A DNA stretch of 64,000 nt from Dictyostelium discoideum. Taxonomy: Eukaryota. The notes under the pieces were generated by a model, which searched no databases, was not told where the DNA came from, and worked only from the letters and a program-made list of their open reading frames with translations. Made by a program: the position numbers and the translations under genes. This document shows, one piece after another, positions 10,748 through 32,988 of this stretch; position 1 is the first letter of the stretch, and every line of letters begins with the position of its first letter. Location: assembly GCA_000004695.1 (NCBI GenBank), contig CM000154.2, positions 288,001 to 352,000 on the forward strand. Reading direction: 5' to 3'.

Positions 10748-12499
10748 ATGCAATCACTTGCACGTTTATCTCGTACCTCTTTGGTTCAAAAGGGTCTTGT
10801 TCCACAAACCATTAAAAACTATTCATCAGTTTCACAGTATGTAATAATTTTTTAAAAATAAAATAAAATAAAAAAAAAAAAAAAAAAAAACTTAATTAAA
10901 AAATTTGATCATCAAATTATTTGATTAGTTTTTTTTTTTTTATTATTTTTATTTTTATGATATTTTCTTTTTTTTTTTTTTTTTTTTAAAAACTAAAAAA
11001 TAAAGAAAAAAAAAAAAAGAATATTTTTTACTAACTAAATATTATTATTATTATTATTTTTTTTATTTTATTAATATAGAGCTGAAATTGATAATGAACC
11101 AAGATTTTTAGAATGTTTCAAAACTTTCTTTGATAAAGCAGCTGGTTTAACCAATTTAAAACCAGGTGTTTTAAATAATATGAAAGAATGTAATGTTGCT
11201 CTCCGTGTTGAATTCCCAATCAAGAATGAACATGGTGATGTTGATATTATTGCAGGTTATCGTGCACAACATTCACACCATCGTTTACCATGCAAAGGTG
11301 GTATTCGTTTCAGTGAAGAAGTAGATCTCCAAGAAGTTATGGCCTTAGCTTCATTGATGACTTATAAATGTGCTGTCGTCGATGTTCCATTTGGTGGTGC
11401 TAAAGGTGGTGTCCGTATCGACCCAAAGAAATACACTGTCGCCCAACGTGAAAAGATCACTCGTGCCTACACTCTCCTCTTATGTCAAAAGAATTTCATC
11501 GGACCAGGTGTCGATGTACCAGCTCCAGATATGGGTACAGGTGAACAAGAAATGGCATGGATTCGTGATACCTATCAAGCTTTCAACACCAACGATGTTG
11601 ATTCAATGGCTTGTGTCACTGGTAAACCAATCTCATCAGGTGGTATTCGTGGTCGTACCGAAGCTACTGGTCTCGGTGTTTTCTATGGTATCCGTGAATT
11701 CCTTTCCTACGAAGAAGTCTTAAAGAAGACTGGTTTAACTCCAGGTATCAAAGGTAAATCCATTGTTATCCAAGGTTTTGGTAATGTAGGTTACTTTGCC
11801 GCCAAATTCTTTGAACAAGCTGGTGCTAAAGTTATTGCCGTCGCCGAACACAATGGTGCCGTCTACAACGCCGATGGTCTCAACATTGATGCCCTCAACA
11901 AATATAAACTCCAACACGGTACTTTCATTGATTTCCCAGGTGCCACCAACATTGTCGACTCTGTCAAAGCCTTAGAGATCCCATGTGATATCTTAATCCC
12001 AGCTGCCCTCGAAAAACAAATCCACATTGGTAACGTCGCCGATATTCAAGCTAAATTAATTGGTGAAGCTGCCAACGGTCCAATGACCCCACGTGCTGAC
12101 CAAATCCTCCTCAATAGAGGTCATGTCATCATTCCAGATCTCCTCTTAAATGCTGGTGGTGTCACTGTATCATACTTTGAATGGTTAAAGAATCTTTCTC
12201 ACGTTCGTTTCGGTCGTTTGAACAAGAAATGGGAAGAATCCTCAAAGAAATTATTATTAGAATTTGTTGAATCAACCGTCAACAAGAAATTATCAGAAGC
12301 TGAAAGAAGCTTAATCATCCATGGTGCTGATGAAATCGATATCGTTCGTTCAGGTCTCGAAGATACCATGCAAAATGCTTGTGCTGAAACCAGAAAGACT
12401 GCAAATGAAAAGAACACTGATTACCGTTCTGCCGCTTTATACAATGCTATCATGAAGATTAAAGCTGTCTATGAATCATCTGGTAATGTCTTCTCTTAA
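10748..12499 (+). CDS. glud1: Mitochondrial glutamate dehydrogenase (NAD(P)+), 502 aa; join(10748..10836, 11080..12499), intron 10837..11079
   Basis: Exon 1 (MQSLARLSRTSLVQKGLVPQTIKNYSSVSQ) looks like a mitochondrial presequence and ends at a GTATGT donor in phase 2. The acceptor ATATAG is followed by AEIDNEPRFLECFKTFFDKAAGL...MKECNV, which is in frame with ORF 11180..12499. The K/GGAKGG GDH motif and a Rossmann fold (GFGNVG) are present. Overall similarity to animal GDH is strong. Confidence 0.9.
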
Positions 12500-12792
12500 A
12501 TATTTTAAAAAAACCCTTTTAAGTTACGCAAAAAAAAAAAAAAAAAAAAATCCAATACAAGTTATATTAAAATAAAATGAAAATAATAGATTTAATATTG
12601 TAAAAAAAAAAAAAAAAAAATCATCAAAATCAAATAATTTTGTTTAATTTTAAATTTTCTTTTTATTATTCTTCCTTAATCTATTTTTAATTTTATTATT
12701 TTTATTTTTTTATTTTTTAATATCAGCTAATCATTTCTGATATTGATTAATTTAATTAAAAAAATTGTTTTTTTTTTATTTATTTCTTAAAA

Positions 12793-14173
12793 TTAAAAAG
12801 TAATTACAAAAACAAAAAATAAAATAATGAATAGATAACCAGTTATTGATTGAGTTATTTTAAATGATGAGTTACAAAATAAATTTCTTTCAAATGCAAA
12901 TTTCCCACAATCATCACTTTCTTTAATATTGTAATCATTAATATTTTCGCACATTATTTTTCTACAATTTTTTGAAAGACAGGATTGTGATGATAATTTA
13001 TTATCTACTAATGAGCACTTATTGTCGTATGCACAGATTTCCAATTCGTCCGAATATATCAATTTCATTGTTTTTAGTGGGGAAATTGATTGATAACATT
13101 CATTATCTGAACAACTACATCTTTCAAAGTCTAAACACTCGTTAAATGTGGCATTTGGATTACATGATCTTAGGCTTGGTTCTACGTATTCAATACAAAT
13201 ATCTTTTGAGCACTAAAATAATTATAATAATAATAATAATAATAATGATAATAATAGTAATAATAAAAAGTTAAATATATTTTCATAATAATATTTTTAC
13301 TTTTTTTACAGACTACCTACATATAGTCCTTTATTGTAATCACAAAAATTGTAAGTAGCAGAACAATCAGCACCTAATCCAAGAGGTTGTTTTTTAGTAC
13401 AAACACTATTGTTACAATCCAATCTACCTAAACAATCGTCTGGAGAAGTGCACGATTCACCCTCTAATTTTATATTTTCACAAGAACAGTTTGAATTTGT
13501 TGAACATAAACAAAATTCATTATATTTGCAATTTGCATTTATTTTATTCCATCCATCACAGTTTTCAGAAGGTTTCAATGTGCATACATCATTAATACAA
13601 GCAAGTTTATTAGTTGAACAATCAGAATCTAATTTACAATCTTCACCTAATGTTGCAAACCCATAGTCTAAACATCTGTAAACATTTTCTTTATCCAAAA
13701 GACATAAAGTACCTAAAAAAATTGGTTATATTAATTTAATTACCCTTTTTGAATCCATTTTAGGTAATTATTATTTGAAAAAACAATAACTTACCAGCAA
13801 TACATAATTTTTCACCAACTTTACATTCATCACCCTGTCTCAAGTATTTATTGCATTTCCCAGTTTGATTTGATGTGAGAGAAGAGTTATAAAGGCAAGT
13901 TGTATCATAGCTACATTTTCCTTTATTAGTTCCACACTTATATTTTAACAGTTATTATTATTATTATTATTTTTTATACAAAAATAAAATATTTAATATC
14001 TTTTTTTTCTATTTATTTTATTTATTCAATTATTTTATTTGTTTATTTTATTTTATTTTAAAATTATTTGATCCACTTACAATATCATTTTCTTTTAAAC
14101 AATTTGGACAACTACTATCTACAACACTGTAAAATAATACTAAAAAAAATAGCAGAACCAAGTTTATTTTCAT
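12793..14173 (-). CDS. Cysteine-rich secreted, predicted GPI-anchored protein (tandem array unit 1), 348 aa; join(14173..14081, 13936..13795, 13712..13321, 13212..12793)
   Basis: Exon 1 (MKINLVLLFFLVLFYSVVDSSCPNCLKENDI) is a signal peptide and ends at GTAAGT. Exon 2 (CGTNKGKCSYDTTCLYNSS...GEKLCIA) ends with donor GTAAGT in phase 1. Exon 3 is the ORF 13306..13698, ends ...DYNKGLY and is followed by GTAGGT. Exon 4 (CSKDICIEYVEPSLRSCNPN... through ORF 12793..13068) ends NSSFKITQSITGYLFIILFFVFVITF, which is an omega-site plus hydrophobic tail like a GPI-anchor signal. All splice phases are consistent. Confidence 0.75.
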
Positions 14174-14520
14174 TTTTTATGTTTTCTTTTTTTTTTTAAA
14201 AAAAAAAAAAAAAATATTGATCTATTTTTAAAATTTTTTTTTTTAACCACCTTTCCTCTTTTTTCAAAGAAACAACATATCTTACTTTTTCAAATTTTTT
14301 AAACGCCCCATAAAAATAAAAACAAAAAAAAATAATTTTATTGGTAGATATTTTTAATTATTTGAAAAAGGTTTTTAAGAAATCAAAAAAAAAAAAAAAA
14401 AAAAAATAAAAAAAAAAAAAAAAAAAAAATAAAATAAAATACAAAATATTATTATTTTAATTTATTCATTTTAATTTTTTTTACTAGTAATAAAAGTAAT
14501 CACAAAAACAAAAAATAAAA

Positions 14521-14917
14521 TAAAGAATAAAGAAGTTATTGGCTGGGTGAGTTTAAATGAAGAATTACAATATAAATTTCTATAAAATACATCCTTTCCA
14601 CAATCATCACTTTCTTGAATACCTTAACTATAAACTAACGTACTACACACTGTTCTTCTGCAATTTCTAACAACACAGGAATTTACACCTAAATTGTAAC
14701 CATCCAATGAGCACTTATTATCAAATGTACACTTATCCAAATCGTCAGAATAATAATATTTTCCCATTTTTGGTGGGGATAGTTCATAGAACATTTTCCA
14801 TTTGAAAAATTACAAGTTTGAAGGGATGGGCATTGATCAAAAGTAGAATTAGGATTACATGATTTTGTTCTTGGTCTACATATTCAATACAAATATCATC
14901 TGAGCACTAAAATAATA

Positions 14918-14962
<45 letters not shown>

Positions 14963-15962
14963 AGGTTAATAATATTTTAATTAAAAAAAGTGTCTTATTT
15001 TTGGTGACTCGAAAAATTAAAAAAAACAAAAAAAAGAAAAAATTTAGATATTTATTTTCTTAAAATAAATTATTCTTCAGAATGCGAGTGGTGTGCAGGC
15101 AACGTGGTTTTTTTTCCAATTATTTGATTAGTTTTTATTTTTTACCTTTTTTTTTTATTTATAACACTCGTTCTGATTTTATTATTATTAAAAAAAAAAA
15201 AATATAAAAGTTAATAATATTTTAATTTTTTTAATTTTATTATTATTACTTACATATAATCCTTTATTGTAATCACAATTATTAATAGAGCAATCAGCAC
15301 CTAATCCAACTAGTTTTGGTTTAAAGCAAAAACCATTTTTACATGACATTTGACCAAAACACTGGCCTAAGGAAGTGCACGATTCATCCTTAAATTTTAT
15401 TTTTTTACAAGAATCATCTACACGATATTCATCATAATTGCAATTGGAATTCCGTCCATCATAATTTTCAGAAGGTTTCAATCTACATACCTTTTTAATA
15501 CAATCAGGTTGATTAGTTGCACAATCTGTATCTAATTCGCAATATTACCCTAAAGTTGCGAATTTATAGTATAAACATCTGTAAACATCATTTCTATACA
15601 AAAGACATGAAGTGCCTGACAAAAATTGATATTTTATTAATATAATTATATGTATATATTTAATAATATTACTATTCTATATTTCTTTAATTTAACTTAA
15701 AAATGTTTATATTTAAAACTTACCTTCTACACATAAATCATCTAAATTACCAAATCCACATTCATAACATGTTTCAAGTATTTTCTACATTTCCTAATTT
15801 GATTTGATGGTAAAGAAGAGTTTATTAATTTTTTATTTTTTATTTTTTTAATAAATCTTGTTTTATTTTTATGATTTACATACAATATCATTTTCTTTCA
15901 AATTGGACAACTACTATTTACAACACTGTAAAAAAATAATATAAAAATAAATACCGGAATTA
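14521..15962 (-). pseudogene. Decayed copy (unit 2) of the cysteine-rich tandem-array gene
   Basis: It is homologous exon-by-exon to units 1, 3, 4 and 5, but carries several disruptions. The exon 1 homolog reads ATG AAA TGA and has lost the CPICLEEN segment. The exon 2 5-prime half is deleted. Exon 3 has an in-frame TAA (ATLG* instead of ATLGEYCELD). The last exon has at least two frameshifts and an in-frame TAA (VCSTLVYS*). Confidence 0.7.
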
Positions 15963-16507
15963 AGTTTCATTTCATTTTAGGTTTTGAATAATAAAAAAAA
16001 AAAAAAAAAAATTCTTTTTTTTATACAAAACTTTCTTACTCTTTAAAATTTTTAAGCCATCGCTAAATTAATAAAAAATATAAAAATAGATAGCAATAAT
16101 AGTTTTTCTTACTTAAACTTTATTTTTTAGGAATATTATATCTTTTTTTTTTTTTAAAAATACAATCATTCACCTTTAAAAAAAAATAACTTATTCCCTA
16201 GAAAGCAAGAATAATATTATTCAATTTTTATATCAAAATTTTAAAAAACACAAACATTTACTTTCAAAAAAAGGGTTTGAATTTATTTTTTGATAAAGTA
16301 GTTAAAAAAAAAAAAAATTTAAACATTTTTCAATTAACTATTAATTACAACACAAAAAAAATAATTGCAAGCTAAAATTAGATTTTTTTTTTTTTAAATC
16401 TTATTTTTTATATTTTATTTTTTTCTGATTTTTAAAGGCCCCTTAAAAATTGAAAAAAAAAAAAATTGGTAGGTTTTTATAATTATTTTAAAGGGGTTTT
16501 AAGAATT

Positions 16508-16553
<46 letters not shown>

Positions 16554-16646
16554 AAAAAAGTTTTAGTCAATTTATTACTAGGAAAAATATTTATTTGTTT
16601 ATTTTATATATTGTTTGTTATTTTATTACTGGAAATAAAATTAAAT

Positions 16647-17960
16647 TTAAAAAGTAATAACAAAAACAAAAAATAATACTACAAATAAAGAGGTTATTGA
16701 TTGAGTGAGTTTAAATGAAGAATTACAGTATGAATCTCTAAAAAATGCATTCTTTCCACAATCATCACTTTCTTTAATATTATAACCACCTACTAAACCA
16801 CTACATATTTGTTTTTTACAATGTTTTGAAATACAGGATTTTGAGTTATATCTATAACCATCACCCATTGAGCACTTATTATCAAATGCACACTTATCCA
16901 AATCGTCTGAATAATAATATTTATCCATTTCTGGTGGAGTTGGATAAATTGTATAACATTCTTCATCTGAACAACTACATATTAGATCGGATGGACATTG
17001 GTTAGATGTAGCATTAGGATTACATGATTTTGTGCTTGGTTCAACGTATTCAATACAAATATCATATGAGCACTAAAATAATGATAATAAAAGAATTAAA
17101 TTAAAAAAAAAACAAGTTAATAATATTTTAAATTGTTTAATTTTAATTTTATTATTACTACTTACATATAATTCTTTATTGTAATCACAATTATTAATAG
17201 AGCAATCAGCACCTAATCCAACTAGTTTTGATTTAAAACAAACATTATTTTTACATGACATTTTACCAAAGCATTGGCTTGAGGAAGTGCACGATTCACC
17301 CTCAAATTTTATTTTTTTACAAGAATCATCTATACAATATTCATCATAATTACAATTTGAATCCGATCCATCACAATTTTTAGAAAGTTTCAATCTACAT
17401 TCCTTATTAGCACAAGAAAGTTGATCAGTTGCACAATCCGTATCTAATTCACAATACTCACCTAAAGTCGCGAAACTATGGTACAAACATCTTTTAACAT
17501 TATTTTTATCCAAAAGACATGAAGTGCCTGACAAAAATTGATATTAAATTAATATATAATAATATATTGCTATTATATTACAATATATTATTTTAATATA
17601 ATTTTTAAAAATTATAAAACGATAACTTACCACCAACACATAAATCTTTAAAATTACTAATTCCACATTCATCACCCTCTCCCAAGAATTTGGTACATTT
17701 TCTAATTTGACTTGATGGTAGAGAAGAGTTTTTAAAGCAAGTTGTACCATAGCTACAAGTTCCTATAGTCCCACACTTTTTTTTTTAATCAATTAAAATT
17801 ATTATTAATTATTTTTTTTTTTTTTTAATTAATTTTATTTTAATATTTTTAAAGATTTACATACAATATCATTTTCTTCCAAACAAATTGGACAACTACT
17901 ATTTACAACACTGTAAAAAAATAATATAAAAATAAATAATGGAAGTAAGTTTTTTTTCAT
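16647..17960 (-). CDS. Cysteine-rich secreted, predicted GPI-anchored protein (array unit 3), 342 aa; join(17960..17865, 17775..17631, 17527..17166, 17072..16647)
   Basis: It has a signal-peptide exon (MKKNLLPLFIFILFFYSVVNSSCPICLEENDI), GTATGT and GTAAGT donors and AG acceptors. ORFs 17073..17534 and 16647..16928 are exons 3 and 4. The C-terminal tail is SSFKLTQSITSLFVVLFFVFVITF. Confidence 0.75.
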
Positions 17961-18317
17961 TTTTAGTTTTTGAATAATAAAAAAAAAAAAAAAAAAAATT
18001 CTTTTATTTATACAAAAATTCAAAGGCATTACTCTTAAAAATTTTTAATCAATCCTCTAATTTTTCAAATTTAAACTTTGCTTTCTTGGAAAATTTATAA
18101 TAATATCTTTTTTTCTCTTAAAAAAAAAAAAAATAACAAAAAAAGTGCTTGTCCTTTGTTCCAGGGAAAAATATCTTTTTTAAAAAAAATAAAAAATAAA
18201 TTTTTTTTTTTTTAGGGTTTGTTTATTTGAAAAAAGTTTTAAAAAAAAAAAAAAAATAAACTTTTTTTTCACACCAATCATTTTTTAACTAATAATTGTA
18301 ATTACCCATTTTTTTAT

Positions 18318-18348
<31 letters not shown>

Positions 18349-18748
18349 ACCCAAAAAAGAGTTGTTTTATTTACAAAGAGTAGTTTTATCAGTTCTGCTA
18401 CAATAAATTTTAATCACATTTTTTCTTGGTAAATTTTAAAAAAAAACAAAAAATAAAAAATAAAAAAAAAAAAACAATCAATTTTTAATTTAATTATTTA
18501 TATTTTATTTACTTATTTTTTTTATTGAAATTATATTTTATGTTTAAAATATATATCAACCATTAATGGGTAACAGAAAGAATTTCAATTTTTTTTAAAA
18601 AAAAATTACATTATGATCATTTATAAAAAACCATTTTAATATAATTATGATCATAAAAAACCATTTTAATATAATTAATTAAAATAAAAAATAAAAAATG
18701 ATTATTTAAATTTATTTTATTTTAATATTTTTATTACCAGAAATAAAA

Positions 18749-19902
18749 TTAAAAAGTAATTACAAAACCAAAAAATAAAATAATGAATAAAGAAGTTATT
18801 GATTGAGCGAGTTTAATTGAAGAATTACAGTATCTATCTCTAAAAAATGCATTCTTTCCACAATCGTCACTTTCTTTAGCACCAAAGGTATCTGAAAAAC
18901 CACATATTATTTCTTTACAATTTTTTGAAACACAGGATTTTGTATTATAAAAAAGTGATTCATCCAATGAGCATTTATTATCAAATGCACACTTATACAA
19001 ATCGTCTGAAGCTTTAAATCTTTCCATTGGGGTTGGTAAATATCTATAACATTTTTCATCTGAACAACTACATTTTTGAAGTTCTGAGCATTGACTATAA
19101 GTAGCATTAGGATTACATGATTTCTTTATTGGTTCAAAATATTCAATGCATATATCATCTGAGCACTTAATAATAATAATAATAATAATATTAAAAAAAA
19201 AAAAAAAAAAGTTAATAATATTTTAATTTATTTAATTTTATTTATTAACTACTTACATATAAATCTCTATTGTAATTACACACATCATATTTGCAATTAG
19301 CACCTAATCCAAGGAGTTGATTAGAGCAAACATTATTTTTACAAGACATTGGACCTAAACACTGGCTATTATAAATGCACGATTCACCCTCCAATTTTAT
19401 TTTTGCACAAGAATTTCCTAAACAATATTCATCATAATTACAATTGGAATTCAAACCATTACAATTTGCAGAAGGTTTCAATCTACATTCATTGTTATTA
19501 CAAACAAGTTCATCAGTTGCACAATCAGTATTTAATTCACAATATTCAGTTAAAGTTGCGAATTTATTTGAAAAACATCTGTAAATTTTATTTTTATCCA
19601 TAAGACATAAAGTACCTGACAAAAATTGATATTTTTTATTAATATATATGTATTAAAATTCTATATATTTTTTTAATATAATTTTTAAAAATTATAAAAC
19701 TATAACTTACCCTCAATACATAAATCTCTTAAATTACCAGCTCCACATTCATCACCCTCTCTCAAGTATTTGGTACATTTTAAATTTTGATTCGATGGTT
19801 CATAAGTATTATTAAAGCAAGTTGTATCATAGCTACACATTTCATGATTGTTAATTCCACACTTTATTTTTTATAATCAATTAATATAATTTCAATATTA
19901 AA

Positions 19903-19933
<31 letters not shown>

Positions 19934-20057
19934 ATTATTATTTTATTATTTTAAATTATTTACATACAATATCATTTTCTTTCAAACAAATTTGACAACT
20001 ATTTACAACACTAAATAAAAATATAAAAATAAATAATGGAATTAAGTTTCTTTTCAT
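18749..20057 (-). CDS. Cysteine-rich secreted, predicted GPI-anchored protein (array unit 4), 338 aa; join(20057..19968, 19861..19711, 19615..19257, 19165..18749)
   Basis: Exon 1 reads MKRNLIPLFIFIFLFSVVNSCQICLKENDI and ends at GTATGT. Exon 2 (CGINNHEMCSYDTTCFNN...LCIE) is in phase 1. Exon 3 is ORF 19245..19622 and exon 4 is ORF 18749..19027. All reading frames are intact. Confidence 0.75.
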
Positions 20058-20655
20058 TTTTAGTTTTTGGATAATAAAAAAAAAAATTTATAAAAAAAAT
20101 TATTTACTTTTTTTCCTCTCCCAGTTTTTCTTTTGGGAAAAAAAAAAAAAAAAAAATAGAAAAAAAAAAATTACTTATTCTTCTTTATTTTCTAGGGAAA
20201 AATATCTTTATAAAAAATAAAATTAAAAAATTAAAAAAAAAGAAAAAAAAAAAAGAAAAAAAAAAAGAAAAAAAAAAATTACTTATTCTTTATTTTATAG
20301 GAAAAATATATTTTTAAAAAATAAAATAAAAAAATAAAAAAATTAAAAATAAAAAAAAAAAAAAAAAAATTTTAGGAGTAAGAATTCTTTGATTACTGAA
20401 AAAAAAAAATCTACAGGTTGGTCATTTCTTTTAGAATAATTTTAAAATCATATTTTCTTGATAAATAAATAAAAAAATAAAAAAAAAAAAAAAAACTAAA
20501 ATAAAATAAAATAATTTTAAAAACACACAACCAATACATATGAAATTTATATTAAAAATGGTACACACATCTAACAATTGTAACTAAGTGATATTTATTT
20601 TAAAAAATTAATAATAAAAAATAATTGAATTCAAAAGATATTGTTTTAATAGTTT

Positions 20656-21111
20656 TTAAAAAATAATTTGAAAAACAATAAATAAAACAATAAGTAAATA
20701 GGTTAATGACTGAGAGATTTTAGATGAAGAGTTACTACTGCAAAATAATAAATCTGCTCTAAGTTCTTCCTTTCCACAATCATCTTCTTCTTTAACCTTG
20801 TAATCACCAACATAACGTTGACAAATTTCTTTTCTACAATGTTTTGAAAGACAGGACTCTGATGAATATAAATTAACATTAAGTGAGCACTTGTTATCAT
20901 ATGCGCACTTTTCCAATTGGGATGATGCAATCATTTTGAGACTTTCTGGTGGATATATACCAGACTGATAACATTCATGATCTGAACAACTACAAGTTTG
21001 ATATGCTGAGCATTCGCTAACTGTAGCATTTGGACTACATGATTTTGGACTTGGTTGTACAAATTCTTGACAAATATTATCTGAACACTATAATAATAAT
21101 AATAATAAAAT

Positions 21112-21181
<70 letters not shown>

Positions 21182-21654
21182 CAGTTTAAAAAACTTACAT
21201 ATAATCCTTTATTGTAATCACAAAAACCATTATAATAACAATAATCATTATTGTTGTCACAATTATAAGTACCCAAACAACTACCACCTAATTCAATGAG
21301 TTGTGGATTGCCACAAACTCCGCTATTACATGTCAATCCACCTAAACAATCTCGTGAATAATTGCATGGTGAACCTTGTGTATTAATTTTTTGACATACA
21401 CAATTTGAACTTGCTGTACAATAACAATATTCATCATAATTGCAACTTTCATCAATATCATGACAGTGTGTATATTTAGTAGGGTCATGTGAACATACAT
21501 TATTAATACAATCAAGTTGATCAACACAATCAGATTGTAATTGACACTGTTCACCAAGAGATCTAAAACCGTAATCCAAACATCTATAAACATTACTTTT
21601 ATCCAAAATACAACTAGTACCTGTTAAGAGGAAATTTGATTTATATTTAAATTA

Positions 21655-21689
<35 letters not shown>

Positions 21690-21876
21690 TTGTGACATAC
21701 CAAGAATACATAAATAAACACCTGGATCACATTTATCACCACTTTTCAAGTATTTGGTACATCTTGGGGAAGAAGAGTTATTGCTCAAGCATTTTGTATC
21801 ATCACTACATGTTCCTCCTGAGTCACACTATTTCATTTTTATTTTTATTTTTATTTTTTATATTAATAATATTAAT

Positions 21877-21924
<48 letters not shown>

Positions 21925-22036
21925 CAATTTATTTACATACAATGTCATTTTCTTTCAAACAATTTGGACAACTACTATTTACAACATTGTAAAATAAAAT
22001 TAATAGAATAATAAATAAAATTGAGTTAATTTTCAT
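20656..22036 (-). CDS. Cysteine-rich secreted, predicted GPI-anchored protein (array unit 5), 358 aa; join(22036..21941, 21827..21701, 21620..21199, 21087..20656)
   Basis: Exon 1 reads MKINSILFIILLILFYNVVNSSCPNCLKENDI and ends at GTATGT. Exon 2 (CDSGGTCSDDTKCLSNNSSSPRCTKYLKSGDKCDPGVYLCIL) is in phase 1. Exon 3 is ORF 21181..21606 and exon 4 is ORF 20656..20934. This is the most divergent intact member. Confidence 0.75.
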
Positions 22037-22647
22037 TTAAGTTTTTTTTTTTTTTTTTATAACTTTATGATAATAAAAATAAAATAATATTGGAGATAAT
22101 AAAGAATATCGATAAAAAAAAAAATTAAAAAAAAAAAAAAAAGAAAAAAAAAAAGAAAAAAAAAAAAAATTAAAAACCAAAAAAACCAATTTTTATACCC
22201 CCTTAACACATCAATTAATAATTATATTTTTCAATATTATTTGAAAAGCCACGTGTTTTAATATCGTCTTCATTTCCTAAAAAAACAATATCTTTTTTTT
22301 TTTTTTTTTTAATTCAACCAAACAATTTTCAATTTACAATTTCTTTCAAACAAAAAAAAAAAAAAAAAAAAGCTATTACCAAAAGAAATTAATGAAAATC
22401 AAAACTAAAATTAAATTAGATTTTTTTTTTTTAAATTTTTTTTTGTTAATTTTAATTTTGATTTTCATGTATTTTTTTTAAAAAATATCTTATTTTTTTT
22501 TTTTCGCACTAAATATCAAATTATTAATAAAAAAAAAAAAAAAACAAATTTGGCCCGAACTATGAAGTAAATTGTTATTTAATTTTTAAATAATCAAATA
22601 ATTGTTTAAAATAAGTTTAAATTGTTTTTGTTATATAAATTATTTTT

Positions 22648-22707
<60 letters not shown>

Positions 22708-22850
22708 GTATTTTAACACCAGTTATACATAGTGTATTTTAGTTGTCCCATGCCAAAATTTAGTGTGAAAACTCACTGCCTTTTAGATAGAAAAATTTTC
22801 AAAAAAAAATACAAAAATAAGAGATAAAATAATGAATATACACACCAGGT

Positions 22851-23520
22851 ATCAAATCATTTGAATAATATTTAGCATTTTCTATTGGATTTGATCGTGC
22901 ATTATAACATTTGCTATCAGAACAGCCACAAGTTAGATAGCCGGGACATGTATTATTTGTATCATTTGGATTGCATGAACTTAAGCTTGGTTCGACATAT
23001 TCTATGCAAATATCATTTGAGCACTAAATAATAATAATAATTATATTAATATTAATAATAATAATAATAATAATAAATGTTAATTATTATTGTACCATTT
23101 TATTTGAATTAAACTCCATTTCAAAACATACATTAATCCTTTATTATAATCACAAACACCGTTTCCTGAACAATCTCCACCTACTTCAAAGAGTGACCTT
23201 TGAACACAACTATTTCTTTTCCCACATATCAAACTACCTAAGCAATTATTTGTTTTAGTACAATTTTCACCCTACAACTTGATTAATTTGCAAGAACTAC
23301 TGTAACCTACATTAGGGGTATATCCAGTTGTTTCACAATACTCGTTATAATTGCAATTGGCGTCATTACTGGCACAATCTTTTGAATACAATTTACATTT
23401 TAAACAAACAAATTCATCAGTAGCACAATTTAAATTTAATTCACAGTTTTCACCAAGAGTTGAAAACTCAAAATCCAAACATTGGTAAACTTTTTTTTTT
23501 ATCCAAAAGACATTTCATTT
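22851..23520 (-). pseudogene. 3-prime remnant (unit 6) of the cysteine-rich tandem-array gene
   Basis: Only the exon 3-like and exon 4-like regions remain (ORF 23272..23478, and CSNDICIEYVEPSLSSCNPN... near 22900-23030). Exon 3 has an in-frame TAG (IKL* where paralogs read IKLEGESC) and an A10 run that shifts the frame. Exon 4 is truncated after KYYSNDL and lacks the hydrophobic tail. No exon 1 or exon 2 homologs are found upstream. Confidence 0.65.
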
Positions 23521-24970
23521 TATTTTTTTTTTTTTTTCTTTATTTATTAAATCCAAAATAAAAATTTTTTGAAAAAAAAAACTAACAACCAATCCACGGT
23601 CAATCTAAATTTTAAAATTTTTTTTTTTATTTTTTTAATCTTTTCCTAGATTCCCAAAAAAAAATACGTTTCCAAAGCATAATTCCCCTAAAAAATTTTT
23701 AAAAAAAATATTTTAGAAACACAAAAGATATTTAAATTTTTTCCCTAGGTTTCTAAAAAAAAAAGAAAAAAATAAAAACATAATTCTTTTTTTTTTTTAT
23801 TTTTTTTTTTTGATCTTATCATCTTTTGGTGATCAAACCAATAATTTCTTAAATCTTTTTTTTTTTTTTTTTAATGCTTTTTTTTAATTATTTTATACTC
23901 TTAACAATTAATAAAAAGAAAAAAAAATAAAAAAAATTTCTAACTTTTGATTTTAATCATTTTCTTGTAAATGACAGAATAATTCTCTTTATTTAAAATA
24001 ATCCAGTAGAATATCAATTTTTTTTTTTAAAAAAAAAAAAAAAACATTTTTAAAATATTATTAGTCCTTTTCGTTTTATATTTTTTTAAAATATTATTAG
24101 TACTTTTCATTTAATATTTTTTTATATTGAACTGGTATAAAAAAAGTTTTTGGGTTGAAAAAAAAAAATTGGTGAGGAAAAAAAAAAAAAAAAATTAAAA
24201 ATAAATTAAATTAGGTAAAATTAAAATCAAATTAATAAACCTGTTCATTATTTAGTTTTCATTGAAAAAATTTTAATACAAATAAAAAAAAACAAATAAT
24301 GAATGAGTATAAAAAAAAAAATTTATGAGGAAAAAAAAAATTAGTGGGAAAATAAAGATTTTAAAAAGCAAAAAAAGAAAAAAAAAAAAAAGGTGGAAAA
24401 TTCCACAATAAAATTTTAACTCAATATAATAAAAATGCCTCAATTAATAATAATGTTTTAAAATTTCAGATGTATCATTCATCCATATGATGTTTCTGAA
24501 ACCAATAAATTCCCTTCACATGGACTTCTGATGATCCTCTTGATATAGCCATCAACCTTCAAGATTGTTATGAATATAGTATACAAGTTTGAATGATAAT
24601 TTTTTGATCACTTTAAACCTACCAAAAAACACAACACCATAAACAAATATATTTTTAAAATAATTAAACCAAATTAATATATGTATTATTATTTTTTTTT
24701 TTTCCACACATATTTTTTTTTAATAGGAATTTTTTTTTTTATTCCAGTTCATTTCCTATTTTTTTTTTTTACAAAATGGTTATAAAAACTTTATATTAAA
24801 ATTTAATATTATTATTATTAGAGTTTTCCAATTATTTTTTCCAGTATACTATTATTTATATTTTTAATATTAAGATGATAGAAATGAATTTATATTTTTT
24901 ATTTATTTATTTATACAACTTTTTATTAAATTTTATAAAAAATTAATTTTTATTTTTTTTAATTCAATTA

Positions 24971-25780
24971 TTAAAATAAATCTTTTAATCTTGATAATAA
25001 TAATGATCTACTATAGAGTGTATCACTTGATAATAAAATTTGTTTAATTAAAATATTCATATGACTCATATAAAGGGCATCAGTTAAAATGAATTGGGAA
25101 TAAAGGTTAACTTCATTAATAAAATTTGGCATTAAATTTGCAATTTCATTGAGAGGAGTTTTCAAATTATTTAAATGTGAAGAAACTGATAATACTGATT
25201 TAATGACCAATTCATAATTACTGATTACAACTTGATAGGTGGCAACATTTGGTGAATTTGGTGATAAGGAATTTTTTGTATTATTCATTAAAGTTGCTAA
25301 TGTTATAGCTGATTGTTTAACTGAATCAATATTTGTAATTAAATTATTAATTGATGATGAAATTGTATTAAATCTACTTGTATCCATATTTGTAAATTTT
25401 GTAAGAGTATTTAAATAACCAACTGTATTATTTAAACTAACAATTCCCAAATTATTTGCATTATTATATAAGGAAATTAAATTTTGATAATGTGATGATG
25501 CTCCAAATAAATCATTATTTGATAATGCAATTATATTATTTAAAAAATATTTACTAAATGTAATATTAAACACATCCGATGGGTTTTCAACTTGAATTGA
25601 ACTTGCCAAAATTAAAATACTTGTTTGATCATCATTAAGAAGTAACGAAGCACGTGAAAAATCAGCCGGTGTCATAATACTGGAGCCTGTAATTGGGACA
25701 TAATTTGAAATTAGTGAATTGGAAAAACTGAAAAGAGAAACTAAATAAATTAAAAAGAAAATTGAATAAAATTTAAACAT
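24971..25780 (-). CDS. Secreted Asn/Ser-rich hypothetical protein, 269 aa
   Basis: It is a clean ORF with an N-terminal signal peptide (MFKFYSIFFLIYLVSLFSFSNS) and coding-like composition in an AT-rich context. I recognise no domain. Confidence 0.6.
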   Translation of the reverse strand: MFKFYSIFFLIYLVSLFSFSNSLISNYVPITGSSIMTPADFSRASLLLNDDQTSILILASSIQVENPSDVFNITFSKYFLNNIIALSNNDLFGASSHYQNLISLYNNANNLGIVSLNNTVGYLNTLTKFTNMDTSRFNTISSSINNLITNIDSVKQSAITLATLMNNTKNSLSPNSPNVATYQVVISNYELVIKSVLSVSSHLNNLKTPLNEIANLMPNFINEVNLYSQFILTDALYMSHMNILIKQILLSSDTLYSRSLLLSRLKDLF

Positions 25781-30027: not shown

Positions 30028-30034
<7 letters not shown>

Positions 30035-32988
30035 AATGCAGAAGTTTGTTGTTGAACTGGAGAAGAAGTTGAAGAAAAAGTTACAGGTTTACTACCACTT
30101 GAATTTAATACACTACCACTATTTGGAGGACTACCAACAGAAGTGACATTATTTGAGGCGGTTGAAGTTGTGGTGGTGGTGGTTGAAGGTGGTGGACCAG
30201 AGATTGTTTGTTTTCTATTTTGAATTGGTTTTGTAGAAACTTTACCACGACCTCTAATGGTTTCAGCTTTTCTTTTTAAGAGTTGTTCAAAGTTTGGATT
30301 ACTATGAATGTTTGATTTAATTGATTGAACCCAACTATCCATTTCGGCCATATTTGCAGCGGCGATAAAATAAGCGGCATGATTTGCTTGAACCAAAGTA
30401 CCATCGGAATTCAATTTACAAGCTTTCATTTGCTCCTGTGAGGAATGAAGCATAAAACAAAACTTTTTCTGTGGGTCGATGGTGACGACAACATTCTCCA
30501 ATGGAATGATACCACAAGGTTCATGATCTTGAGGGGTCTTATAGTAGAGTAAACAATTGGCGGTCAATATGAACCAACGCTTCTTCCAAGTCTTAATTCT
30601 ACCACCTTGCTTTGTTAACCAACCTTTCTTTTCAACATGTTGATTTGCTTGATTACCATCACGCTCCATCTTAATTTCGTTGGTAACGATTTTATCATAA
30701 AGATTCTCCATGAAATCGGGTGGTAAATCATCACCACTATTGATACCACTATTATTACGAAGGAATTCAGCTTTGGTCATTTTCTTCTTTATGTTTGGAT
30801 TATGAGCATCAGTGTTTAACATAATCACAGAGAAAGCCAATACATAGACAGCATCTTGATTTACAAATACCTTATTCTCTGGATTATGTTGATAGAATTG
30901 TGATGCAAATTTCTCCATCATACGATCGATCTTTTGAGCTTCACCAGGCAATCTAAAAGTGAGTAGATATTTACGTAATGCCACATCGAAATCCAATCCA
31001 AAAAAGTTTAATTCATCTACAAATGCATGGAGTACTTGAAGGTTGAAATCATCACCTTCACCAATATACTCACCAATGGATTGTTTTGAAAGTTCACTAT
31101 GAGTCAAAAGGAAATGTGCAACCTCTTTTGGATTCTTTTCACTAATTACACCATTGGCAACAATGAATTCAATACCTTTCTTTGGATGGCTATTAAATTG
31201 AGCGATTGCAGCTTTAATCAATAACAATTTTTGTTTCTCTGCGGCCAATTGTTCCATATCTTCTTTGGCCTGTTGTTCCAAAGCCAATTGAAGTTCATCG
31301 ACTTCATGATTGGATGATTCACGTTTATTGACGATTTGATAGATTTCATCATGATTCTCGGTACCAAAGGTTTTTGTGAAATCAACTGATGAACGTAGAC
31401 TAACTTGATCTAAATCTGCACCCGCTCTAATTAAAACACGAGCCACATCGGAATGATTCTTTTTGATGGCATAAACCAATGGAGTTTTACCTGCAAAGTT
31501 TTTAGCATCAATACGTGCCTTAAATTGAATTAACACATCCACTGTATCACGAGCACCAGCTGCACTTGCCAAATGTAATGGTGTACTTGAATGGGTGTCG
31601 ACGGCATTAACATTTGCACCCTTTTTCAAGAGGATTCTACAACAATCCGAATGACCATTGTAGGCTGCATTATGTAGGGGCGTACCACCTTGACTATCTT
31701 TAACCTCCAATTCAGCACCACTTCTGATCAATGTTGCCAAACATTTACTTCTACCATTGAATGCTGCTTTATGTAATGGTGTTGCGCCTTGACTATCAAC
31801 GATGCAAATGGGTGCTCCTTTATCGACCAATAGCTTGGCACAAGATGAATGGCCATTGAATGATGCTTTGTGTAGTGGTGTTGCCCCCTCTTCATCCTTG
31901 ATATTGATTTGTGCTTTATAACGAATGAGTAGATCTACCATATCAAGTAAACCATTGAATGCTGCCAAATGAAGTGAAGTTGATTGACGACTATCTCTGC
32001 AATCGATCATTGTTGGATCTAAATATAAAAGATATTCACAAACTTCTTTATGTCCATTGAATGCTGCTTTATGTAATGGTGTTTCACCCATTTCATCCAC
32101 CATATTAATCTTTGCTCCTAACTCTATTAAACGTTTGGTTAATTGTAGGTTACCATTGAAACATGTATGATGTAACGGTGTGACACCCTCGATATCGACA
32201 CAATTGATGTTCTCACCATTTCTTACCAATTGCTCAACACAATCTACATAGCCTGCAGATGCGGCATTGTGTAATGGTGAAATACCATGAATGTCACGAG
32301 GATCCACTTTTGCGCCCTTTTTCAATAATAATGATACACAACTTGAATGACCACTAAATGAAGCTTGATGTAATGGTGTGATACAATCATTGTCCACTGC
32401 ATTCACTTTGGAGTCGGCCTTAATCAACAACTCTACACATTGTGGATTACCACCAGCAGATGCATGATGTAACGGTGTTTCACCATTGGTTGTCACTGCT
32501 CTTGGATCTGCTTTACCATTTAATAAATATAGTACACATTCTGCTGATGCAAATAATGATGCTTTGTGTAGTGGCGTACCATTTTTATCATCTTTGGTAT
32601 TAACGTCCACTCCACCTTTTTCTACCAATAGTTTGATACACTCTAAATGTCCTCTACTTGATGCCCATTGCAAGGGAGTATTACCTGCTGAATCTTTAAT
32701 GTTGGCATTTGCTTTCTTATCTAACAAAAAGTTTACACATGCTGCTGATCCACAAAATGCTGCATGATGTAATGGTGTTCTCTTTTCAGAATCTGGTGTA
32801 TCTGGTGATGTTGCTGAATTATTCAAAAGATTTGATAACTTTTCAATATCACCTGTAGATGAATAATAATGTACTGATGGTCTTGTTGGTGCTGAATTTG
32901 AATGTTTTGCTGTTGTTGCTGGTGCTGCTGTTGTTGTTGTTGTTGTTGTTGATCCTGTATTCTTTGTTGAATTTGATGTTGATCCCAT
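30028..32988 (-). CDS. secG: Arf guanine-nucleotide exchange factor with N-terminal ankyrin repeats, a Sec7 domain and a PH domain, 986 aa
   Basis: It has at least 14 ankyrin repeats (TPLHxAAxxGH pattern). The Sec7 domain carries the catalytic glutamic-finger motif FRLPGEAQKIDRMMEKFA. A PH domain follows (KKGWLTKQGGRIKTWKKRWFIL). This architecture matches the described Dictyostelium cytohesin-like SecG. The symbol is assigned from memory of that architecture, not from a search. Confidence 0.75.

Follow-up and report, generated by a model that had tools for sequence, protein, structure and literature searches.

A tandem array of cysteine-rich protein genes in Dictyostelium discoideum and its likely kinship with the adhesion glycoprotein gp64

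What kind of proteins are encoded by a tandem array of cysteine-rich genes on chromosome 5 of Dictyostelium discoideum AX4, and how do the copies evolve? The array lies in a stretch of 64,000 nucleotides (contig CM000154.2, positions 288,001 to 352,000 of the forward strand; "the window" hereafter) with a G+C content of about 20%. On the minus strand of the window, six head-to-tail units occupy positions 12793-23513; four of them (A, C, D and E) are intact genes and two (B and F) are pseudogenes. In our view the array is likely to represent a tandem expansion, specific to this lineage, within the dictyostelid gp64 family of surface glycoproteins. Judged by their sequences, its genes are members of this family, which is found across the dictyostelids.

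Membership of the gp64 family

Exhaustive comparison of a profile of the array subfamily with 1.84 billion representatives yielded 94 protein matches at E<=1e-3, of which 34 reached E<=1e-10; the majority are 320-390 amino acids (aa) long and aligned from end to end. Named sources among them are Dictyostelium firmibasis, D. purpureum, Tieghemostelium lacteum, Polysphondylium violaceum and Cavenderia fasciculata, and furthermore Acytostelium subglobosum, Synstelium polycarpum and Heterostelium album. Word-indexed searches, including those with a broad alignment, found nothing beyond the D. discoideum complex. The array subfamily proper (at least 45% identity) is limited to D. discoideum, D. cf. 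discoideum, D. citrinum, D. dimigraforme and D. firmibasis. Across the Dictyostelia, an alignment of 17 sequences contains 35 invariant cysteines, and the signals at both termini are common to all of them.

The array profile also matched PPL_00440 from Heterostelium (E 7e-10), a protein that is 75% identical to the UniRef entry "Cell-cell adhesion glycoprotein 64" (GP64_HETPA). It is solely via this Heterostelium intermediate that gp64 was reached. Alignment of the array subfamily with gp64 by hhalign gave a probability of 96.9% and an E-value of 1.6e-10 over 216 columns. An alignment of 51 sequences has 38 family-conserved cysteine columns; all 36 cysteines of gp64 fall on such columns, and the cysteines of A, C, D and E occupy 38 out of 38. 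A Pfam search with gp64 itself matched no family.

The gp64 protein of Heterostelium (Polysphondylium) pallidum is an adhesion protein with a glycosylphosphatidylinositol (GPI) anchor and 36 disulfide-bonded cysteines. Work by Toda et al. in 1984, Manabe in 1994, Saito in 1994 and Funamoto & Ochiai in 1996 reportedly dealt with blocking by antibodies, with antisense knock-down, with the GPI anchor and with the complete disulfide bonding of the protein. A preliminary description of this DNA, made without database searches, had seen no link to any named Dictyostelium protein family. This view has to be given up, because the dictyostelid founder, gp64 of Heterostelium pallidum, is both named and experimentally studied. 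It is one of the few biochemically identified dictyostelid adhesion molecules and yet is without a curated family. Its known relatives now comprise four D. discoideum genes that nobody has studied and some 90 sequence clusters from the Dictyostelia, which means that a role for these "hypothetical proteins" can be put to the test in a species amenable to genetics. In the literature searched, the link between the array genes and gp64 was not found stated. As the genes had already been annotated and the family has a studied founder, the array does not represent a new kind of system; the value added here lies in the gp64 link, in the combination of gene birth and death with fast protein change, and in two probable annotation errors.

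The features of the four intact proteins agree with the earlier proposal that they are secreted, cysteine-rich and probably GPI-anchored, as far as can be predicted from sequence. Each has exactly two hydrophobic segments, one at residues ~2-18 and one formed by the final 13-14 residues, which reach the C-terminus and leave no cytoplasmic tail. The latter segment is preceded by C-N-S-S and about eight polar residues, a layout that is probably of the GPI-attachment signal type. Proteins A, C, D and E contain 40, 38, 38 and 42 cysteines, respectively, all of these numbers being even and corresponding to 12.5-13.5% of the mature chain, and there are 3-6 N-x-S/T sequons per protein.

A different fate is conceivable for such proteins, namely as components of the extracellular matrix, the slime sheath or the spore coat, with the hydrophobic C-terminus removed or unused and no lipid anchor. 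Dictyostelium produces many cysteine-rich secreted matrix and coat proteins, and the compact disulfide-rich rod predicted by AlphaFold2 (see below) would suit this purpose, but Pfam searches matched none of the array proteins to the repeats of matrix or coat proteins of Dictyostelium, for instance Dicty_CTDC. Moreover, the small-residue site, the polar spacer and the terminal hydrophobic stretch are kept family-wide, gp64 included, which points to a processed GPI signal, and we regard a matrix or coat role as quite improbable.

Around residues 130-185, the four proteins show sub-threshold similarity to the Pfam families Dickkopf_N, EB and DUF7107, the only ones returned. Dickkopf_N (PF04706) matches 23 of 49 family members at E<=0.01, the best at 1.4e-12. 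Two groups of candidates were ruled out in the course of these comparisons: granulin, as the array proteins are without CC doublets, and Dictyostelium matrix repeats (e.g. Dicty_CTDC), ponticulin and similar proteins, for which there was no Pfam match. The protein of unit A (P0004) served as lead sequence for structure prediction and for the search of representatives. AlphaFold2 run with eight close sequences gave an unconvincing model (predicted local distance difference test score, pLDDT, 55.6), which was discarded; with 49 diverse family members pLDDT rose to 85.5 and the predicted template modelling score was 0.77. The latter model consists of beta-hairpin modules (residues 24-250), a cysteine-containing helical domain (254-322) and a tail helix. 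Foldseek found no full-length match for it in the PDB (best E 0.08).

The module with Dickkopf-like features bears the possibility that the proteins act as tethered or shed signalling ligands or antagonists, for example by binding a Frizzled/LRP-like receptor. Dictyostelium is not known to possess Wnt ligands, and the likeness is confined to a single module, ~50 of ~300 residues. All four array proteins remain below the gathering cut-off of 25 bits for Dickkopf_N (14.4-19.1 bits), and DKK is listed as absent outside animals (PMC2959043). Since colipase, prokineticin and toxin folds score like Dickkopf for the module, the similarity is best taken as that of a generic disulfide-rich fold, and a signalling function of this type appears very unlikely.

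Gene structure, transcripts and annotation

Self-comparison of positions 12000-25000 by BLASTN revealed a ladder of ~2 kb direct repeats, 65-83% identical, between 12787 and 23513. With the unit C protein as TBLASTN query, copies within the 64 kb were found in the array region exclusively; a search of phage DNA with one whole unit gave no match. Every intact gene consists of four exons. Their introns follow the GT..AG rule in 12 of 12 cases, are 80-144 nt long and interrupt the reading frame in phases 0, 1 and 0 in each copy. The 3' end of exon 1 encodes CPNCLKENDI, CPICLEENDI or CQICLKENDI, exon 4 begins with CSKDIC, CSYDIC, CSDDIC or CSDNIC, and the C-terminal order is C-NSS, eight polar residues and hydrophobic tail. 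The preliminary description had envisaged collinear four-exon units of about 2 kb on the minus strand, with splice phases kept in the intact copies, and our results bear this out, with six units, four intact proteins and the same phases in A, C, D and E; each of the motifs quoted at that time, those closing exon 1, opening exon 4 and forming the C-terminal tail, was found.

Transcript sequences were obtained as Logan contigs assembled from the SRA runs SRR24091724 (contig L004) and SRR24091726 (contig L005). The first (1021 nt) is exact to the predicted mRNA of unit E over 978 nt from the ATG, corresponding to a genomic span of 1283 nt, and the contig ends in Illumina adapter sequence. The second (1008 nt) matches unit A over 872 nt, with a genomic span of 1207 nt. 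All six 40-mers across the exon junctions of A and E are present in exact form. As the contigs are too short to include introns and the junctions are exact, they represent spliced transcripts of the two genes. Units A and E are transcribed and spliced at the predicted junctions, which is the outcome that the earlier description had asked of transcript data. The transcripts come from two neighbouring SRA runs, one gene per run. At about position 878 of L005, the contig has A7 where the genome has A6 at about position 12970 of the window (TCAAAAAA(A)TTG), which truncates the open reading frame (ORF) of unit A in the contig at 292 aa; the most likely cause is an error at the homopolymer during sequencing or assembly, and not true variation.

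The proposal that the units are fragments of a repeat or transposon with open frames that arose by chance can be regarded as refuted by the transcripts and by conservation, and we give it virtually no weight. The genome is indeed rich in AT and in repeats, and two of the six units are degenerate. On the other hand, A and E give rise to spliced transcripts, the exon structure is conserved, syntenic arrays occur in four other genomes, a scaffold of 38 cysteines is conserved across the Dictyostelia, the ratio of nonsynonymous to synonymous divergence (dN/dS) is below 1, and no copies occur elsewhere in the window. The units are thus genes rather than transposon debris, as had been assumed.

All four genes are already contained in the AX4 reference proteome (Q54KB6, Q54KB5, Q54KB4 and Q54KB3), where they carry automatic names only, and a literature search for the four genes found no paper mentioning them. 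The earlier suspicion that the family is "un- or under-described" is therefore correct in so far as the genes are unstudied and incorrect in so far as they are annotated. A and E are named "Paramecium surface antigen repeat-containing protein"; this name probably originates from a SMART model.

The reference models of C (Q54KB5) and D (Q54KB4) differ from the models built here from the sequence at intron 2 (regions 17489-17650 and 19577-19730, respectively, minus strand). They pass over the consensus donor G|GTAAGT in favour of the weak donors GTTTTA and GTTATA, and their acceptor, immediately before 17489 in C and 19577 in D, sits 36-38 nt inside exon 3 as defined in A and E. In consequence 9-11 residues including a family-invariant cysteine are lost and the number of cysteines becomes odd. 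The combination of the consensus G|GTAAGT donor with a T-rich ...CAG acceptor lies at the position used by the transcripts of A and E, and our model of unit C retains the invariant cysteine and arrives at an even total of 38. A newer annotation (KAM9946824.1) shares our junction for C and D, yet fuses neighbouring genes. On the grounds of the lost invariant cysteine, the odd count, the position used in A and E and the newer annotation, the reference models appear slightly wrong, and Q54KB5 and Q54KB4 are probably mis-spliced. Merging of neighbouring array genes is also seen in recent NCBI annotations of ACTFIW (contig L006, 6191-17714; also P0016, P0011 and P0126). The merged proteins in wild Dictyostelium assemblies are 492-1147 aa long, and one of them reads through a pseudogene of the AX4 type B. 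Any tally of the family that relies on those proteomes will be incorrect.

Table 1. Coordinates of array units and neighbouring features in the window.
Feature	Position	Strand	Exons	Remarks
Unit A	12793..14173	minus	14173-14081, 13936-13795, 13712-13321, 13212-12793 (stop codon included)	Intact, 348 aa; identical to XP_637205.2 / Q54KB6
Unit B	~14492..15975	minus		Full-length pseudogene
Unit C	16647..17960	minus	17960-17865, 17775-17631, 17527-17166, 17072-16647	Intact, 342 aa in sequence-built model; reference Q54KB5, 333 aa
Unit D	18749..20057	minus	20057-19968, 19861-19711, 19615-19257, 19165-18749	Intact, 338 aa in sequence-built model; reference Q54KB4 (DDB_G0287483), 327 aa
Unit E	20656..22036	minus	22036-21941, 21827-21701, 21620-21199, 21087-20656	Intact, 358 aa; identical to XP_637208.1 / Q54KB3
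Unit F	22829..23513	minus	Exon 3 and first ~195 nt of exon 4	Truncated pseudogene
Glutamate dehydrogenase gene, last exon	11180..12499	plus		Synteny anchor and rate baseline
269-aa flanking ORF	24971..25780	minus		Second synteny anchor, with orthologues beside the array in L003 and L006
Glycoside hydrolase family 18 (chitinase-like) ORF	2618..3886	minus		Divergent
Glycoside hydrolase family 18 (chitinase-like) ORF	4797..6152	plus		Divergent
Arf-GEF-like (Arf guanine nucleotide exchange factor-like) ORF	30028..32988	minus		Large; ankyrin repeats, Sec7 and PH

Turnover and divergence of the copies

Arrays at the corresponding position are present in related genomes. At least four copies adjoin the glutamate dehydrogenase (GDH) gene in D. 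cf. discoideum ACTFIZ (contig L002), D. discoideum ACTFIW (contig L006) has six copies bounded by the GDH gene on one side and the orthologue of the 269-aa ORF on the other, and at least three copies adjoin the orthologue of the 269-aa ORF in D. citrinum (contig L003). The GDH orthologues, which adjoin the array in L002 and L006, contain ELFV_dehydrog domains and are 99.8% identical at the protein level. The 269-aa ORF, whose product is hydrophobic at the N-terminus and matches nothing in Pfam, is itself fairly fast-evolving (dN/dS 0.21-0.34; 69% identity to D. citrinum). Among the other neighbours, the two chitinase-like ORFs are situated upstream of a class Ic (Glu/Gln) tRNA synthetase-like gene, and the Arf-GEF-like protein shares 98% identity with its orthologue in D. 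citrinum. Outside such arrays, P0003, a single member of the family with 72% identity to C, was observed at an unrelated locus between a MeaB-like and a Mon2-like gene in D. discoideum ACTFIR (contig L001, 10001-11329).

In a neighbour-joining tree the orthologues separate into groups of A, C/D, E and F type. Nucleotide identity is 84-90% between orthologues as compared with 65-80% between paralogs; orthologues being closer than paralogs, the duplications are old and the array has not been homogenised. Strong concerted evolution among the copies is ruled out for the same reason.

The two dead copies in AX4 have decayed to different extents. In unit B, codon 3 is a stop, exon 1 bears a deletion of 4 nt, exon 2 has lost its 5' 40 nt and is frameshifted in the remainder, exon 3 contains an in-frame stop, and exon 4 carries four frameshifting indels and a stop. 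The positional counterpart of unit B in ACTFIW (contig L006, ~14305-15817) falls within a predicted gene. Unit F has an in-frame stop and frameshifts in exon 3, and no convincing exon 1 or exon 2 was found for it. Genes of the F type are intact in D. cf. discoideum (P0009 and P0020), and for the F remnant of AX4 no match reaching 300 bp was found in the ACTFIW contig L006. ACTFIW also possesses an extra copy (L006 11900-13308, the second half of P0126) that has no positional counterpart in AX4 and is about 80% identical to C and D at the nucleotide level. This extra copy, the location of the B counterpart within a gene and the intact F-type genes elsewhere demonstrate that the array evolves by gene birth and death. 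It is a compact case of this process in surface proteins, with copy number and pseudogene status varying between close strains. In a codon alignment of AX4 unit E with its ACTFIW orthologue (L006 6000-7700), one stop codon appears on the ACTFIW side; it may be a real lesion or stem from an alignment that runs into an intron.

Evolutionary rates were estimated by the Nei-Gojobori method with Jukes-Cantor correction in the same manner for all genes, and they are rough in an AT-rich genome. Between AX4 and ACTFIZ, the array orthologues have dS values of 0.26-0.30, dN values of 0.12-0.14 and dN/dS ratios of 0.46-0.49. For GDH, the class Ic Glu/Gln-tRNA synthetase-like gene and the GH18 (glycoside hydrolase family 18) genes the same comparison gave dS 0.06-0.38, dN 0.001-0.027 and dN/dS 0.02-0.08. 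The statement that the family is rapidly evolving is thus confirmed; protein evolution of the array proceeds 5- to 100-fold faster than that of its housekeeping neighbours. Between AX4 and ACTFIW, dN is 0.028-0.074 and dN/dS 0.42-0.60 for the array (flanking genes: dN 0.001-0.040, dN/dS 0.04-0.36). In this pair dS of the array (0.065-0.123) compared with that of the flanks (0.024-0.128) shows no excess synonymous divergence of the kind expected from long-term balancing selection. Among the AX4 paralogs, dN/dS is 0.54-0.84 and reaches ~1.1 in exon 2 of the C-D pair.

Rates along the protein were derived from seven pooled orthologue pairs. The fastest stretches are residues ~50-85 (dN/dS 0.8-1.0) and ~235-255 (~0.9), and the slowest is the Dickkopf-like module at ~140-190 in the second half of exon 3 (0.23-0.36). 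The ratio is 0.64 at mature non-cysteine positions. No region lies clearly above 1, the highest pooled window being at ~1.0, in what is a weak test based on pairwise estimates from few genomes. Outside the cysteine scaffold, constraint is relaxed or partly diversifying. The preliminary description had contrasted diversified exons 2 and 3 with a conserved signal peptide and tail, and this is partly right. With orthologue ratios of 0.55 and 0.43, signal peptide and GPI signal do not show special conservation; among the paralogs exon 4 surpasses exon 3 in conservation by little, if at all, and among orthologues change is slowest in the latter half of exon 3. The accompanying view of a recognition family receives no support from selection, as none of the tests shows it to be positive or balancing.

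These rates also bear on the idea that the paralogs are alternative abundant GPI coat proteins comparable to the immobilisation antigens of ciliates, forming a protective or variable surface coat that diversifies under the influence of predators, pathogens, toxins or the environment. The ratio of 0.64 at non-cysteine positions would be in line with it, as would the GPI-type cysteine-rich architecture, the tandem family with its pseudogenes and changes in copy number, and the reference name "Paramecium surface antigen repeat-containing". However, Paramecium_SA (PF01508) was not matched at E<=1 in the four proteins nor at E<=0.01 in 49 family members, the proteins of ~340 aa are without the long periodic repeats of ciliate antigens, and their sole characterised relative is an adhesion protein. 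We consider a coat function unlikely. Like a matrix component or a Dickkopf-type ligand, it has less support than the interpretation based on gp64.

Proposed role and comparison with known systems

With the array interpreted as a probable expansion of the gp64 family, an intact copy encodes a protein with a predicted cleavable signal peptide, followed by ~230 residues of disulfide-locked, Dickkopf/colipase-like beta-hairpin modules, a cysteine-containing helical domain of ~70 residues and a GPI-attachment signal. Such a protein would enter the endoplasmic reticulum, form ~19 disulfides and be N-glycosylated. Its hydrophobic tail would be exchanged for a GPI anchor, leading to display on the outer face of the plasma membrane; we infer anchoring and surface display from the sequence features. 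By analogy with gp64, the displayed proteins would probably serve in cell-cell adhesion or surface recognition. Duplication produced the A-, C/D-, E- and F-type lineages, after which some copies were lost or decayed; B and F are dead in AX4, with related strains keeping these types intact or carrying an extra copy.

Several points weigh against this interpretation. The hhalign match to gp64 covers the beta-module part, and the C-terminal third is aligned only by its cysteine pattern in the multiple alignment. Furthermore, gp64 is only ~25% identical to the array proteins and originates from a distant dictyostelid group, and for these reasons its function may not transfer to the array. The case for GPI anchoring of the four proteins consists of sequence features and their likeness to gp64. 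Matches in the Logan assemblies concerned A and E, and no transcript of C or D was obtained. Finally, dN/dS values below 1 fit plain relaxed constraint as well as diversification driven by recognition.

A more far-reaching possibility, to which we attach little credence, is that in the array the D. discoideum complex possesses a second locus for adhesion or recognition that evolves fast and varies in copy number. It would act independently of tgr and bias how cells sort, how species segregate or which partners are chosen, be it at aggregation or in the sexual cycle. The tgrB1/tgrC1 kin-recognition locus resembles the array in that clustered surface-protein genes of the same organism evolve fast and differ between strains. 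The tgr proteins, which are not homologous to those of the array, are large, span the membrane and have immunoglobulin-like folds. Unlike what would be looked for in allorecognition of the tgrB1/tgrC1 type, the array has no dS above that of its flanks and no region with dN/dS clearly above 1, with few genomes making this a weak test.

Proteins with the Dickkopf/colipase fold (Dkk1, Dkk4, draxin, colipase and prokineticin) appear to share a similar disulfide-rich beta-hairpin fold and cysteine spacing with at least one array module of ~50 residues. This likeness exists at module level only, the array proteins being sub-threshold and without the CRD1+CRD2 (cysteine-rich domain) architecture of Dkk. 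The i-antigens of Paramecium and Tetrahymena are likewise products of cysteine-rich multigene families and, as predicted for the array proteins, GPI-anchored; the Paramecium Ser genes encode GPI-anchored cysteine-rich surface antigens (PMC4136848). The array proteins differ from them in being much shorter, in the absence of long periodic repeats and in having no Paramecium_SA match.

The closest correspondence is with gp64, also called contact site 1. It is similar in size (320 aa as compared with 338-358 aa), and both have an N-terminal signal peptide and a C-terminal sequence of cysteine, small residues, polar spacer and terminal hydrophobic tail. The difference in cysteine number (36 versus 38-42) includes one pair near the C-terminus that is missing from gp64. 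The gene for gp64 is not known to occur in a tandem array. For gp64 alone has a function been experimentally tested, reportedly in the studies of 1994 and 1996 (Manabe, Saito, Funamoto & Ochiai) mentioned above. Within D. discoideum itself, the paralogs DDB_G0291492 (Q54EJ0), DDB_G0291572 (Q54ED1) and DDB_G0290443 belong to the same family and have the same length, cysteine scaffold and terminal signals. They are encoded on other contigs, are ~30% identical to the array proteins and are likewise uncharacterised, being annotated as "hypothetical" or with automatic domain names. These three paralogs are far better conserved than the array, each forming one cluster at 90% identity that comprises several strains and, in the case of DDB_G0291492, also D. 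citrinum.

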